Below are positions 17,687 to 25,962 of a stretch of DNA of 59,783 bases, one piece after another. The stretch spans positions 1-59,783 of the IMG/VR virus record IMGVR_UViG_3300027902_000011; one strand, 5' to 3'. The stretch comes from a virus (Duplodnaviria > Caudoviricetes). The translations under genes and the position numbers were made by a program. Each line of letters starts with the position of its first letter. Position 1 is the stretch's first letter. The notes beneath the pieces are model-generated. The model did no database searches. It had not been told where the DNA came from and saw only the letters and a program-made list of their open reading frames with translations.

Positions 17687-17760
17687 TGGTGCTCCCGAGT
17701 GGAGTCGAACCACTAGCACGTCCTTACCAAAGACGTAGTCTGCCGTTAGCCTACGAGAGC
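17687..17760 (-). tRNA. tRNA-Thr(GGU)
   Basis: Cloverleaf, TTCGA T-loop, encoded CCA. Confidence 0.9.
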
Positions 17761-17765
17761 GTTGT

Positions 17766-17837
17766 TGGTCGCGCAGGACGGTGCCGACCCGTCTGCAGAG
17801 CCCTTATGAGGAGCTCCTGGATGCCGATCCCAGCGCG
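17766..17837 (-). tRNA. tRNA with CAU anticodon (Met or Ile2), non-canonical D and T loops
   Basis: Anticodon loop CTCATAA; T-loop GTCGGCA; minimal D hairpin; CCA. Confidence 0.75.
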
Positions 17838-17901
17838 GAGATTACTCTGTATGTCATTCTTGCCCTCCAAGGGCAAGAACGTCGTATAGAACAATCGGTG
17901 T

Positions 17902-17972
17902 TGGATGGGGACGAGCGGATTTGAACCCTCTTCATCGGCTTCAAAGGCCGACTTGCCACCTTGGTATCCCCA
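17902..17972 (-). tRNA. tRNA-Gln(UUG), short D-arm
   Basis: U1-A72, loop CTTTGAA, CCA. Confidence 0.85.
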
Positions 17973-17977
17973 GTGAT

Positions 17978-18052
17978 TGGAGCGGACAGCGAGTAACGAT
18001 CTCGCCTCATCTGCTTGGAAGGCAGTGGCCCATCCGTCTAGACCATGTCCGC
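17978..18052 (-). tRNA. tRNA-Gly(UCC)
   Basis: GCG acceptor start, U73, loop CTTCCAA; T-loop ATCGTTA. Confidence 0.85.
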
Positions 18053-18056
18053 GTGT

Positions 18057-18131
18057 TGGAGCTGCCAGGGGGATTCGAACCCCCGTTCCCCGCTTGAAAG
18101 GCGGCGTGTCCTTCCTATAGACGATGGCAGC
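18057..18131 (-). tRNA. tRNA-Glu(UUC)
   Basis: Loop CTTTCAA, canonical T-arm, CCA. Confidence 0.88.
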
Positions 18132-18137
18132 GTGAAT

Positions 18138-18227
18138 TGGCGGAGTGCCTCGGGATTGAACCGAATACGCTCTTGCATATACTTGGTTTAGCAAACCAGT
18201 GCCGGAACCCTCCGACCAGTACACTCC
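18138..18227 (-). tRNA. tRNA-Ser(GCU)
   Basis: Long variable arm, G73, loop TTGCTAA. Confidence 0.88.
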
Positions 18228-18306
18228 TGGAGCCCTCCGTGGGACTCGAACCCACATTCTCCAGTTACGGTTCCAAAGTTTAGGAAACTCGGCCGATTAG
18301 GAGGGC
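18228..18306 (-). tRNA. tRNA-Arg(CCU), D-arm absent, expanded variable region
   Basis: Perfect acceptor and T stems; loop TTCCTAA; CCGTAACTGGA after the anticodon arm. Confidence 0.75.
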
Positions 18307-18313
18307 ATGAAGT

Positions 18314-18396
18314 TGGTGCACGTCGCAGGACTCGAACCCGCATTTTCAGATCCAGTTACGGATAGTCGTTTAGAAGACGACCTCGTCTAGACGTGC
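18314..18396 (-). tRNA. tRNA-Arg(UCU), D-arm absent, expanded variable region
   Basis: Perfect acceptor and anticodon stems; loop CTTCTAA; CCGTAACTGGATCTGAAAAT insert. Confidence 0.8.
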
Positions 18397-18879
18397 TTGT
18401 TTACAGTTATCGAAATGGTATCGGTGCATATTCGGGCCTCGTCCTTCTTTTAGACAAAAAGGACAAGTATACTTGATCAAGTTATGATGAGTTCCATCAT
18501 CAAGTCGTCTCTGAGCTGTCTTACGTTGAATCTCACCACCCAAGAAAGGGTGTATTTCTTCAACAACTTGTTTTCTATTGTTTTCTTTGCCCAAGAATGG
18601 ATGAGTTCCTTTAGCAACCCGCTTATGGTTTTCCAGACTTGCTAACTCTGAAATGACTTGAGGAGACAATTTCATTCTTTGAGCTATTCTATAACAGGCG
18701 GCATAGTCGCCCTGCTCTAGATGGATCTCATAGTGATTCTGGATAGTCGTCGCCAACAGGTTCTCAATCCGGTTGTTGGTCTTGTCGCCGTCTTTGTGGT
18801 GAATCTCATAGGCACGACCATCCGCTTCCCGTGGGATGGGACCGTAGTGCTGCTCATAGATTTTTCTATAAATATGCAT
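18370..18879 (-). CDS. HNH homing endonuclease
   Basis: YEIHHKDGDKTNNRIENL and C-terminal CPFC..HFDNC; stop codon lies inside tRNA-Arg(UCU). Confidence 0.88.
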   Translation of the reverse strand: MHIYRKIYEQHYGPIPREADGRAYEIHHKDGDKTNNRIENLLATTIQNHYEIHLEQGDYAACYRIAQRMKLSPQVISELASLENHKRVAKGTHPFLGKENNRKQVVEEIHPFLGGEIQRKTAQRRLDDGTHHNLIKYTCPFCLKEGRGPNMHRYHFDNCKQARLDEVVF

Positions 18880-18941
18880 GCTGGCCTCCGTCAAGGTTAG
18901 AGCCGGTGGGTCTGATCACCGTGACCGGCGTTCTATTTATA
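18877..18941 (-). promoter_or_regulatory. Late promoter plus conserved endonuclease leader, copy 3
   Basis: TATAAATAGAAC GCCGGT CAC GGT GATCAG ACC C ACCGGC TCTAACCTTGACGGAGGCCAGC ATG. Confidence 0.8.
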
Positions 18942-18954
18942 GACCTAGATTTAT

Positions 18955-19030
18955 TGGAGCACCAGGCGAGACTCGAACTCGCATATAACAGCTTTGCAGG
19001 CTGCCCCGTGACCTCTCCGGGCACTGGCGC
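18955..19030 (-). tRNA. tRNA-Cys(GCA)
   Basis: Loop CTGCAAA, U73, CCA. Confidence 0.88.
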
Positions 19031-24049: not shown

Positions 24050-24143
24050 TTGAATTTCGTCCCTGTTTTTAATGAGGTGCCGGGAACCTCAACCGGTAAG
24101 CACAAGAGCAGATCTAGAAACCGCTCAATAGTAATCCGGCAAT

Positions 24144-24220
24144 TGGTGCGAGCCGGGGGAGTTGAACCCCCAACCACATGGTTCTAAACCATGCCGCTTT
24201 GCCTGTTTGCGTAGGCTCGC
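24144..24220 (-). tRNA. tRNA-Leu(UAG), short variable loop
   Basis: Loop TTTAGAA, A73, CCA. Confidence 0.87.
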
Positions 24221-24792
24221 TTTAATGATTCTGAGATGCGGCGTTTTGTTTCTTCAGACCGTGATTTTCCATATTGAGAATTTTTTGGCCCAACATGCTT
24301 TCCAATGTGCGAACGACGCATCTTTTGTTTTGTAACGTCAGAGTGTTTTTTACCTCTCCACCATTCTTGAGATATTTGTTGTGCTAAAAGCATATTCTTA
24401 ATAGCAGATTTACGACGCTTTTCGGTGAATGGTTTTTTTACAAGAATATCTCTACAAACTTTAGCGGCCGCCCGGCGTTGTGCTAGCGGATGGGCTAAAC
24501 CATTAGCATTGACATATCCCCAGCCGCCATGGCCACCTGGACATAGGTTGTAATTAGTCTCGCGATCTGGAACGACCAAGATGCGCTCGGCAAGATTTAT
24601 GTCGTACTCGTTATTAGTTTCTATGATGACTTCGGTTACAAAATTCTCGATGCCATACTTCTTGATGGCCTGCTTAAGCAACTTACCAGACCCCATATAG
24701 CCGTCGTAAGGGTAGCGCTTCTTGAGTTTGTGTTTACCGATGTAGTACTTGCCGTTGACGAGACAAGTCGTCTTATAGATCACATAGTGCAT
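24184..24792 (-). CDS. GIY-YIG (Seg-like) homing endonuclease, paralog of 21937..22530
   Basis: Near-identical N-terminal domain; its TAG stop is the tRNA-Leu anticodon. Confidence 0.9.
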   Translation of the reverse strand: MHYVIYKTTCLVNGKYYIGKHKLKKRYPYDGYMGSGKLLKQAIKKYGIENFVTEVIIETNNEYDINLAERILVVPDRETNYNLCPGGHGGWGYVNANGLAHPLAQRRAAAKVCRDILVKKPFTEKRRKSAIKNMLLAQQISQEWWRGKKHSDVTKQKMRRSHIGKHVGPKNSQYGKSRSEETKRRISESLKRAYANRQSGMV

Positions 24793-24798
24793 TTAGTT

Positions 24799-24828
24799 AC
24801 CTCCAGGACTATTTATCGTCCTGGAGGT
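24799..24828 (-). promoter_or_regulatory. RBS-sequestering hairpin with the late promoter in its loop
   Basis: ACCTCCAGGAC-GATAAATA-GTCCTGGAGGT, perfect 11-bp stem. Confidence 0.8.
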
Positions 24829-24833
24829 CTGTG

Positions 24834-24904
24834 CAAGGGGCGTAGGAATTGAACCCACTCTTGTGAGGTTGGAGCTCACCGTGCTACCGTAACACTTGCC
24901 CGAT
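24834..24904 (-). tRNA. tRNA-Trp(CCA), damaged acceptor stem, no encoded CCA (possible pseudogene)
   Basis: Loop CTCCAAC, good D and T arms; acceptor ATCGGGC/GCCCCTT has two mismatches. Confidence 0.65.
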
Positions 24905-24978
24905 TGGTACCGAGTGTAGGGATCGAACCTACTTTTCCGGGTCCACAGCCCAGCGTTCTACCATTGAACTAAAACGGC
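24905..24978 (-). tRNA. tRNA-His(GUG) without G-1, with U72 and A73
   Basis: Loop CTGTGGA; C at -1; ends GGT-A-CCA. Confidence 0.85.
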
Positions 24979-24983
24979 GTGAT

Positions 24984-25058
24984 TGGTGCCGATCAGAGGA
25001 ATCGAACCCCTGCACCTCGCTTACAAAACGAGGCCTCTGCCACTAAGGTTAGATCGGC
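24984..25058 (-). tRNA. tRNA-Thr(UGU)
   Basis: Loop TTTGTAA, canonical arms. Confidence 0.9.
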
Positions 25059-25138
25059 GTGATTCTGGGAGACACTCAAGCGCCCGCTCAAGTGCTCCGG
25101 CGAGTAGACTCTGGACCGGGCGGTCCTCTCTACCGTGA

Positions 25139-25214
25139 TGGTGCCGACTGCAGGAATCGAACCCGCGGCCTCTACCTTACGAGGGGAGCGCTCTACCATT
25201 TGAGCTAAGCCGGC
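25139..25214 (-). tRNA. tRNA-Thr(CGU)
   Basis: Loop CTCGTAA, canonical arms. Confidence 0.9.
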
Positions 25215-25577
25215 TTGAAAGTATTTCAGTCTCGCTGGAAACCAGAGCGCGCCCTCTTGGGCCGACCTACCAGTCAAGTACCGTGAACCGGGCGTGCCAT
25301 GACAGCACGCATGCGATCCACTTGAACATTAGGTAGAGGGTGGAGGGAGAACTTGAGTGGGTTCCTCGACCCTCTGCCTAATGTGGCAGAGGAAAGAACC
25401 CTCTGCCGGTTAGGCGATATATGTCCCTTGGGGGGACAAGAAGCTATCACGCGCTTCCGAGCACCAGCCTAGTGCTGGTTTCGATATGCGCTTGGTATTA
25501 TGTCTGACCGCTCGGGTCATCTTGCTTCCTACTTTAGTTGCTGGTCGGAACTTACCCGACAAGGAATCGTCCATTGC
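25215..25577 (-). ncRNA. Highly structured leader or ncRNA(s) of the tRNA operon, containing a 23S rRNA helix-71 copy
   Basis: Many hairpins, no credible ORF; ATTCCTTGTCGGGTAAGTTCCGACC at 25543-25567. Confidence 0.65.
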
Positions 25578-25582
25578 TTCTA

Positions 25583-25611
25583 TATATATCACGACGCGGA
25601 ATAGATGTCAA
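25583..25611 (-). promoter_or_regulatory. Sigma70-type promoter of the RNA operon
   Basis: TTGACA-17 nt-TATATA with extended TG; similar TTGACA..TG.TA...T elements occur near 7980, 11156, 11816, 13744, 15660, 16395, 20782, 25706, 27150, 28789, 31057, 42807 and 52880. Confidence 0.8.
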
Positions 25612-25728
25612 CTCGCGACAACTTTTTTTCCGGGTCTTTTCTCGAACGATCGGTGCCGGTGCATCAATCGTAGACAGATAGTACACTATTCACGGTTATT
25701 TGTCAACCAGTTATTTTGTTCAACGATA

Positions 25729-25962
25729 TCAAGCACTTAGGTCGCGGCGCTGGATTATGTAGTACTTGTCGGGCTTCTCGAGCACCATGAAGAGCCTGGC
25801 GTAGGGGTCGAGTATCTTCTCGCCGTCTATCCTGACGGCGCCCTGCTCGATGGCGCGGCGCGCCTCGGACTTGGTCTTACACAGACCAGCGAGCACGTAC
25901 AGCTCGGCGACTTCTTTGCCGACCGGGGGTACCCGAGATTCTGATGCGATCAACGGTATCAT
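25729..25962 (-). CDS. Stand-alone S4 RNA-binding domain resembling the TyrRS C-terminal domain
   Basis: VAELYVLAGLCKTKSEARRAIEQGAVRIDGEKILDP; start taken at MIPLIAS. Confidence 0.75.
   Translation of the reverse strand: MIPLIASESRVPPVGKEVAELYVLAGLCKTKSEARRAIEQGAVRIDGEKILDPYARLFMVLEKPDKYYIIQRRDLSA

Follow-up and report, generated by a model that had tools for sequence, protein, structure and literature searches.

An RNase P RNA gene within a dense array of canonical and non-canonical tRNA genes on a virus contig

Only two ribozymes are universal, and one of them, RNase P RNA, is counted among the housekeeping genes of cells. Phage tRNA genes are known to occur in clusters with homing endonuclease genes, as in the tRNA region of T4 with SegB, in T5 and in the arrays of mycobacteriophages. 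Here we describe a locus that brings the two together, a block of minus-strand genes on a single 59.8-kb virus contig, IMG/VR record IMGVR_UViG_3300027902_000011, analyzed over its positions 1 to 59,783 (this whole stretch of 59,783 nucleotides is called the window below). The block resembles the known clusters in its co-oriented tRNA genes interspersed with GIY-YIG and HNH genes, and differs from them in comprising 40 genes for all 20 amino acids, many of them non-canonical, with a ribozyme gene inside.

We found no description of a phage-encoded RNase P RNA in full-text searches of the literature, although supplementary files might hold such annotations. The term RNase P RNA does not occur in a survey of huge phages (PMC7162821), and a phage RNase P RNA is not mentioned in the available part of a 2024 review of RNase P (PMC11143913). 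The novelty therefore lies in a known ribozyme family in a new carrier and context, accompanied by conserved unusual tRNAs. We lean, with limited confidence, towards interpreting the block as a tRNA-supply module, in which a host-type RNase P RNA and the RnpA protein of the host would resolve a dense polycistronic array of CCA-encoding tRNAs.

RNase P RNA within the tRNA array

The total of 40 tRNA or tRNA-like genes combines a structure-only scan, relaxed ARAGORN searches and cloverleaf parsing; the structure-only scan required a 6-7 bp acceptor stem, a 5-bp T stem and NCCA, and disregarded loop sequence. ARAGORN with default settings reports 26 tRNAs, every one on the minus strand between 17687 and 25214. 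The Rfam tRNA model (RF00005) recovers 20 of the 40 elements at or above its gathering score in a scan of the whole window, and 24 at or above the 29-bit gathering score in a search of the block alone with laxer filters, the others scoring lower or going unmatched. An anticodon can be assigned in 39 elements, which together cover all 20 amino acids. These results match an earlier sequence-only reading of the window, in which a model had counted 40 tRNAs for all 20 amino acids in one co-oriented block. About four of the elements are doubtful, namely those at 21962-21882, 21058-20971, 17972-17902 (minus strand, irregular T arm) and 17837-17766 (minus strand, weak D arm).

The elements are densely packed, with spacers of 0-9 nt at 29 of the 41 junctions and of exactly 5 nt at 13 of them. 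Counting one CCA-ended minihelix with the 40 genes, 39 of the 41 elements encode their CCA end, and the base preceding +1 (N-1) is A or C in 38. The sequence-only reading had spoken of CCA-ended non-tRNA RNAs in the plural; this 59-nt minihelix (19479-19421) is one clear case, and no other clear one was seen in the block. The long gaps hold homing-endonuclease genes, five in all (two of the GIY-YIG/NUMOD3 type, three of the HNH type), together with a RusA-like open reading frame (ORF). This 122-aa ORF at 21149-21517 has a feature score of 0.91 and a structural TM score of 0.61 to a RusA cluster, with no match in Pfam. SegB, the homing endonuclease named above, figures in the reference list of PMC6582537.

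The RNase P RNA, of bacterial type A, was also named by the sequence-only reading and is identified with confidence by Rfam: its match to RF00010 scores 170.9 bits against a gathering score of 100 and spans model positions 1-367, the whole model. Helix names below follow the established type A structure. The alignment includes P1, P2, P3 (about three pairs), both strands of P4, P5, P7-P11, a short P12, P15/P16 and P18. The P4 strands align to the consensus and the J11/12 and J12/13 stretches, the module with which RNase P RNA reads the tRNA elbow, are kept. In the P15/P16 region CGGGU aligns to the RF00010 consensus; in the type A structure this motif lies in L15, where its GGU pairs with the CCA at the 3' end of a substrate. 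The Rfam alignment shows every universally conserved stretch of the core to be intact, and 43 consensus positions, holding P13 and P14, to be absent. The 3' end of the RNA lies 7 nt before tRNA-Val(TAC). No match to RnpA (PF00825) occurs in the window, by CheckV about 33% of a genome, or in any of five other records carrying an RNase P RNA, three of which are at least 90% complete.

Neither the block nor the RNase P RNA gave a match as a nucleotide query against a phage collection. Two scans of IMG/VR found further RNase P RNAs in viral records. The first, with an exact motif, gave 23 loci, of which L023 lay outside the Rfam scan; RNaseP_bact_a is present in 16 of the 22 scanned, and seven of those 16 loci hold 5-27 tRNAs, the contigs measuring 7-463 kb. 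The second, for the arrangement lacking P13 and P14, gave 17 new loci, of which L051 lay outside the Rfam scan; 12 of the remaining 16 contain an RNase P RNA of 272-378 nt, in all cases among tRNAs, with several near-identical copies among them. The carriers include a 163-kb record, rated 100% complete, that has direct terminal repeats. Among 11 phage RNase P RNAs, compensatory double changes occur in 47 of 66 predicted pairs, P1 and P4 included, which indicates that the phage RNAs are kept under structural selection. To this extent the sequence-only reading is borne out: the block is a real, co-oriented module for tRNA supply, and its RNase P RNA is under structural selection.

Searches with two other phage RNase P RNAs returned only metagenome-type records and one region of 'Microcystis phage MaAM05' (L024, MW495066.1 109323-121473), which we did not count as a phage case because of its bacterial-looking genes. 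There, an unannotated RNase P RNA-like stretch stands among fliM, fabI, engB, mtgA and glyS, and the record may contain bacterial sequence. Six of the 12 loci with an RNase P RNA from the second IMG/VR scan (L054, L055, L059, L060, L061 and L062) also have a tmRNA in the tRNA array, 0.5-2.2 kb away from that RNA.

The loss of P13 and P14 was considered as a phage-specific reduction and this idea was dropped, since the pattern occurs in at least 120 bacterial loci, with 0 of the 80 examined lying in tRNA arrays. These loci belong mostly to Burkholderiales, other Betaproteobacteria, Sutterella, Omnitrophota, Chloroflexota and Planctomycetes. Rfam, applied to 15 of the 120, found an RNase P RNA in 11, with the motif of L202 falling outside that RNA. 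Two chromosomal RNAs, L183 (304 nt) and L212 (316 nt), have the identical 43-position gap and likewise a short P12 in the Rfam alignments; the architecture of the window RNA is therefore host-type. L183 is also the RNA that the window RNA resembles most, at 81% over nt 29-164, the specificity-domain half. Chromosomal RNase P RNAs of Burkholderiales, Betaproteobacteria and Sutterella (L183, L212, L165, L138, L173 and L142) measure 304-327 nt.

The window RNA thus shares with the type A RNAs (RF00010) of Burkholderiales and other Betaproteobacteria the full-length match, the P4 core, CGGGU, the 43-position deletion and the short P12. Unlike the chromosomal forms, it is a phage gene set among tRNA genes, an HNH gene overlaps it and no rnpA accompanies it in the window; it is also shorter (280 nt against 304-327 nt), has a P3 of about three pairs, lacks a hairpin before the 3' P4 strand and evolves fast. 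On a tree, separate groups are formed by the Burkholderiales genes (support 88/98) and by eight phage copies (87/80); the phage copies cluster, label changes numbering 3 where shuffling gives a mean of 8.9. A Burkholderiales host is suggested by the likeness of the RNase P RNA alone.

Non-canonical tRNAs and their relation to the RNase P RNA

The T-loop differs from TTCRA in 13 of the 40 elements, and the T arm is irregular in two more. The non-TTCRA loops include GGCAGAA (both Pro), GGCAGTA (Ile GAT), GGCGGTA (Ala), ATCGTTA (Gly TCC and Ile TAT) and GTCGGAA (Asn). Three Arg elements lack the usual D arm. The sequence-only reading had noticed more than a dozen altered tRNAs. The anticodon loops look ordinary, as in Lys (CTTTTAA).

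Comparison with homologous elements indicates that the odd tRNAs, at least those of the main families, are real genes. The Pro family (four sequences) has a full cloverleaf and an invariant GGCAGAA loop, and its acceptor and anticodon stems change on both sides; compensatory changes affect 13 of 21 pairs, in an alignment that included one poorly aligned Ile. In the Ala element G3:U70 is retained, and three acceptor pairs and one T-stem pair are changed on both sides. The Arg family, made up of the three window copies and L044:1584-1662, shows compensatory changes at 13 of 18 pairs, and its anticodons (TCG, TCT, CCT and ACG) read Arg codons in all four cases. Its members are laid out as a covarying acceptor stem, a 7-nt linker, an anticodon arm, a conserved D-arm-like segment of 17-22 nt and a canonical T arm, an order that may represent a swapped-arm topology. 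The variable loop is only 5-6 nt long in all five Leu tRNAs of the window, each of which has A73. G3:U70 in Ala and A73 in Leu are identity marks present in the sequence. The degraded T stem of the window Ser(TGA)-like copy, set against the intact stem of its L044 homologue, suggests that some window copies may be decaying.

Animal mitochondria have tRNAs that lack the D arm and a tRNA-Leu in which the long variable arm is missing, and the window elements resemble these in the Arg family, which has no D arm at the usual place, and in the Leu tRNAs. They differ in being phage genes in a bacterial host, with canonical T arms in the Arg family and a conserved D-like segment in the place of the variable region. 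Short Leu tRNAs are seen elsewhere too, at 75-78 nt in the phage array L010 and at 76-77 nt in L040. The variable arm of tRNA-Ile(TAT) contains a hairpin with GAT in its 7-nt loop, which resembles a second anticodon-like loop.

A G at T-loop position 54 is shared by tRNAs of the unrelated arrays L004, L010, L046 and L062. G-N-C-A-G T-loops (such as GGCAGCA, GCCAGTA and GTCAGTA) recur across unrelated phage arrays and several isoacceptors. The array modules of L044, L046 and the window are homologous, at 75-90% identity, in phages for which no shared head protein could be detected. Two phages, G001 (103 kb) and G002 (96 kb), both 100% complete by CheckV, were reached through the odd Pro T arm; their arrays contain counterparts homologous to the odd elements for Pro, Ala, Asn, Arg, Met and Ser, along with a related GIY-YIG gene. 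These phages have no head protein in common with the window, so that they are kin by array and not by virion. Taken together, this suggests that arrays move between phage lineages, perhaps with the GIY-YIG genes. An exact 17-nt motif from the Pro T arm hits 11 viral contigs, only two of them (L029 and L031) in tRNA arrays, and the other nine hits are probably due to chance.

If the RNase P RNA served the odd tRNAs in particular, as the sequence-only reading had supposed, the two would be expected to occur together. We tallied odd T-loops strictly, counting CCA-ended, cloverleaf-like elements, of which 10 of 31 are odd in the window. The arrays of G001 and G002 have odd T-loops in 8 of 16, 11 of 23 and 4 of 11 elements, and RF00010 has no match in the whole records of these phages (0 of 5 records searched); in a positive control the same search recovered a known small RNase P RNA from 5 of 5 records. 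Conversely, three arrays with an RNase P RNA have canonical T-loops only (L006, 0 of 12 odd; L047, 0 of 11; L061, 0 of 6), and two others combine the RNA with odd T-loops (L010, 16 of 26; L057, 6 of 9). The presence of the ribozyme and that of odd tRNAs are therefore not coupled, and relatives without rnpB carry the non-canonical tRNAs, an outcome that the sequence-only reading had itself named as speaking against its inference.

Leader, neighbouring genes and phage identity

The array is preceded by a structured leader (Table 1), for which no Rfam family was matched over 25215-25600. A 60-aa open frame at 25410-25592 within it has no family match; neither this frame nor those at 26000-26578 and 19111-19326 matched PHROGs, NCBIfam or Pfam. 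Close to the start of the leader is a short copy of 23S rRNA, a feature that the sequence-only reading had claimed and that stands: it is identical to E. coli 23S at 29 of 30 positions, and its score of 52 bits compares with a maximum of 32.2 bits over 20 shuffled versions of the window. We take the copied stretch to correspond to the loop of helix 70 and the hairpin of helix 71; UUCCU and the adjoining hairpin lie within it. This stretch of rRNA is also a homing site for intron endonucleases, so the copy may be a relic of mobile DNA.

The toxins MazF-mt6 and MazF-mt3 cut UU^CCU and U^CCUU in single-stranded 23S helix/loop 70, according to the available part of the source (PMC5408214). The window copy shares with this target the UUCCU and the hairpin, in sense orientation, and differs from it in being an isolated 30-nt piece at the start of a phage leader, unique among the loci searched; the region 25215-25728, which includes both the copy and the leader, has no match in any of 63 related loci. 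A function of the copy as a decoy is possible but weakly founded. A sarcin-ricin-like stretch at 25059-25138 was rejected as not significant, which leaves a single rRNA-like piece in the window that exceeds shuffles. A second, 12-nt match to the 23S hairpin site at 28420-28431 (minus strand), before a terminator-like hairpin, is at chance level (E 12).

The S4 gene adjacent to the array, which the sequence-only reading had likened to TyrRS, encodes a protein that scores above the cut-offs of both Pfam S4 (PF01479; 38.9 bits against 22.8) and SYY_C-terminal (PF22421; 33.4 against 27). We take the C-terminal S4-like domain of TyrRS to be the part that holds the long arm of tRNA-Tyr. The best solved relative is the TyrRS of T. 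thermophilus (PDB 1h3e), to whose residues 371-410 residues 18-57 of the window protein align. The protein shares this alignment and the fold match with the C-terminal domain of bacterial TyrRS and differs from the synthetase in standing alone, at 77 aa, without the catalytic Rossmann-fold domain (TIGR00234, 24.6 bits against a cut-off of 113.8). Among homologous frames in metagenome and virus loci, 63 of 73 exceed 130 aa and most have about 400-460 aa, the length of a full synthetase. Stand-alone homologues inside tRNA arrays are present in L025 and L026 (L066 and L067 in the metagenome collection). No close relative of the locus came up when metagenomes were scanned with the S4 protein, the best match being 62% identical over a part. 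The gene is co-oriented with the array, lies upstream of the array promoter matches and has no clear ribosome-binding site.

The contig is, by its gene content, that of a T4-superfamily phage. The major head protein shares 68% identity with its counterpart in Stenotrophomonas phage DLP6 and 60-65% with the major head proteins of myoviruses of Methylophilales, Pelagibacter, Sinorhizobium and Synechococcus. The window also encodes a T4-type DNA polymerase, an SbcCD-like nuclease, a DnaB-like helicase, a scaffold protein, and a gp44/gp45-like clamp loader and clamp. The motif TATAAATA, which we take to be the T4 late-promoter consensus, occurs at 9 sites in the window (for example at 7982, 31508 and 54827) against 0.38 expected, an enrichment that fits T4-type late promoters. 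The genes around the array are for cell-wall enzymes, Hsp20 and replication. The envelope enzymes flank it at 11813-17666 and 27147-30491 and comprise a GH25 lysozyme, a YkuD L,D-transpeptidase, a GDSL/non-GDSL lipase, a polysaccharide deacetylase and an alpha/beta hydrolase. Protein family searches of the array neighbourhood found no further translation genes. The window contains no tmRNA (none by ARAGORN; by Rfam only a 17-nt piece, E 0.073), which leaves the label of translation rescue, given to the block by the sequence-only reading, without support.

Table 1. Features of the tRNA array and its surroundings, in window coordinates
Feature	Position	Strand	Remarks
tRNA array	17687..25214	-	40 tRNA or tRNA-like genes and one CCA-ended minihelix
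RNase P RNA, bacterial type A, 280 nt	22970..23249	-	Rfam RF00010, 170.9 bits
Stand-alone TyrRS C-terminal S4-like protein, 77 aa	25729..25962	-	
Sigma-70-like promoter match (10/12)	25678..25706	-	
Second sigma-70-like promoter, by eye only	~25583-25611	-	Start about 8-10 nt before the 23S-like piece
Structured leader, about 386 nt before first tRNA	25215..25600	-	Fold z-score -5.16 against shuffles
23S rRNA copy, 30 nt, sense	25538..25567	-	About nt 1944-1973 of the annotated E. coli gene
GIY-YIG/NUMOD3 homing endonuclease gene	24184..24792	-	3' end overlaps tRNA-Leu(TAG)
Four tRNA-Leu (TAG, CAG, CAA, TAA), 76-78 nt	23811..24220	-	5-nt variable loop, A73
HNH endonuclease gene	23190..23657	-	Final 60 nt overlap P1-P3 of the RNase P RNA
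tRNA-Ile(GAT)	22730..22803	-	T-loop GGCAGTA
GIY-YIG (SegE-like)/NUMOD3 homing endonuclease gene	21937..22530	-	
tRNA-like element	21882..21962	-	Canonical T arm, unclear anticodon arm (8-nt loop); overlaps GIY-YIG gene end
tRNA-Leu(GAG), 83 nt	21794..21876	-	6-nt variable loop, enlarged D region
tRNA-Pro(CGG)	21632..21707	-	T-loop GGCAGAA
tRNA-Ile(TAT), 90 nt	21537..21626	-	22-nt variable arm, T-loop ATCGTTA
122-aa ORF, RusA-like (lead only)	21149..21517	-	
tRNA-Arg(TCG)-like	21064..21147	-	No D arm after acceptor stem; D-like segment between anticodon and T arms
tRNA-Ser(TGA)-like	20971..21058	-	Degraded T stem (2/5 pairs); T stem intact in L044 homologue
TATAAATA motif inside array	20752..20759	-	
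HNH endonuclease gene	19958..20395	-	
tRNA-Ala(TGC)	19735..19806	-	T-loop GGCGGTA, reduced D arm, G3:U70 kept
CCA-ended minihelix, 59 nt	19421..19479	-	7-bp acceptor-like stem and one hairpin, without T arm
tRNA-Pro(TGG)	19340..19415	-	T-loop GGCAGAA; L044 and L046 homologues with compensatory stem changes
TATAAATA motif upstream of HNH_3 gene	18934..18941	-	
HNH_3 endonuclease gene	18370..18879	-	
tRNA-Arg(TCT)-like	18314..18396	-	Architecture as in Arg(TCG)-like element
tRNA-Arg(CCT)-like	18228..18306	-	Architecture as in Arg(TCG)-like element; L044 homologue has anticodon ACG

Possible roles of the array

Under the tRNA-supply interpretation that we prefer, the array would be transcribed as polycistronic precursors from the upstream sigma-70-like promoters and the internal TATAAATA motifs. 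The phage RNase P RNA would most likely pair with the RnpA protein of the host, given that no phage RnpA gene was found, and the resulting enzyme, if active, would cut at the 5' end of each tRNA and so separate neighbours, with the GGU of L15 pairing with the 3' CCA of the substrate. Each cut would leave a short 3' tail to be trimmed back to the encoded CCA, and the cut at the 5' end of tRNA-Val would free the 3' side of the ribozyme itself. The selective benefit of carrying the ribozyme may be that tRNA-maturation capacity follows phage transcription after host shutdown, independent of the expression of host rnpB. The non-canonical tRNAs would be conserved functional variants that move between arrays with homing endonucleases, whether an RNase P RNA is present or not.

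Several points weigh against this interpretation. Two complete phages, G001 and G002, manage homologous and equally dense arrays without an RNase P RNA, so the gene is dispensable in some hosts and its benefit is left unexplained. That host RNase P becomes limiting is an assumption. In the Rfam alignment P3 is cut to about three pairs and the P17 region is poorly aligned, and the window RNA sits on a very long branch of the tree (1.13 changes per column, placement unresolved), which could mean relaxed constraint or a changed function. Finally, a phage RnpA or another partner could lie in the remaining genome.

The sequence-only reading had proposed that a reshaped elbow lets the tRNAs evade nucleases of the host and that the phage RNase P RNA may be specialized for odd substrates that the host enzyme handles poorly. 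The window, L010 and L057 do combine odd T-loops with an RNase P RNA, the window RNA is fast-evolving, and N-1 is A or C in 38 of the 41 elements, where U at -1 is common in E. coli by the available part of the source (PMC6582537). A specialized enzyme is decidedly unlikely all the same, though hosts could differ in how much their own enzyme tolerates: the complete phages G001 and G002 have homologues of the odd tRNAs and no RNase P RNA, L006, L047 and L061 have the RNA with canonical T-loops only, and the specificity domain, which reads the tRNA elbow, is the most host-like part of the window RNA (81% over nt 29-164) and most resembles chromosomal Burkholderiales genes, with the loss of P13 and P14 common to both. 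Alternatively, the RNase P RNA could be inactive, either a passenger (decaying host DNA picked up with the tRNAs) or a sponge for RnpA that damages host tRNA maturation. The long branch, trimmed P3, poorly aligned P17 and the HNH gene overlapping the 5' end could all be read in this way, as could the fact that the best pairwise likeness is to bacterial chromosomal genes. We consider an inactive RNA very improbable, given an intact universally conserved core in a match that covers the whole model, the many compensatory changes across the phage set, the recurrence of the RNA in tRNA arrays of many unrelated large phages and the clustering of the phage copies on the tree.

A role in countering host defence is harder to dismiss, and we regard it as a tentative possibility that we nonetheless doubt. 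In such an anti-defence module the odd tRNAs would be poor targets for defence enzymes that cut or modify tRNA, the ribozyme would stand in for a host RNase P that abortive infection has shut off or attacked, the 23S copy in the leader would soak up MazF-type rRNA nucleases and the S4 protein would shelter tRNA-Tyr at its variable arm. Evasion of anticodon nucleases by phage tRNAs has been described (PMC10264068) and a defence system that cuts the variable loop of tRNA-Tyr has been reported (PMC13096335), in each case by the part of the source available; the UUCCU of the 23S copy is the motif cut by MazF-mt6 and MazF-mt3 (PMC5408214, in the part cited above). The S4 protein, with the C-terminal domain of T. 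thermophilus TyrRS as its best solved relative and stand-alone homologues inside the L025 and L026 arrays, would suit such a role. Each step of this scenario is conjectural, however, and several observations run counter to it: the 23S copy is present in 0 of the 63 related loci, the anticodon loops, as in Lys (CTTTTAA), look ordinary, and the S4 gene lies upstream of the array promoter match with no clear ribosome-binding site. To our knowledge, no defence system targets T-loops or RNase P RNA.

A broader version of this idea is that large phages repeatedly keep a host-type RNase P ribozyme in their arrays as a kit for translation independence and counter-defence, which here would be joined by recoded tRNAs that are poor targets for defence enzymes (G54 T-loops, Arg with a D-like element after the anticodon arm, Leu without a long arm), a 23S decoy and a TyrRS-C protein that shields tRNA-Tyr. 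We consider the full kit unlikely. If members of the Arg family do work as tRNAs with the D and anticodon arms exchanged in order, they would represent a tRNA topology new to bacterial translation.

In the records surveyed here, RNase P RNA is a recurrent cargo of phage tRNA arrays, carried without its protein partner. The known viral genes related to translation would thereby be joined by one for a catalytic RNA. The phage copies are natural small variants of the type A RNA (269-330 nt) that lend themselves to structure-function work. The odd tRNAs, for their part, ask how much of the elbow and the D arm bacterial synthetases, EF-Tu, RNase P and the ribosome need.

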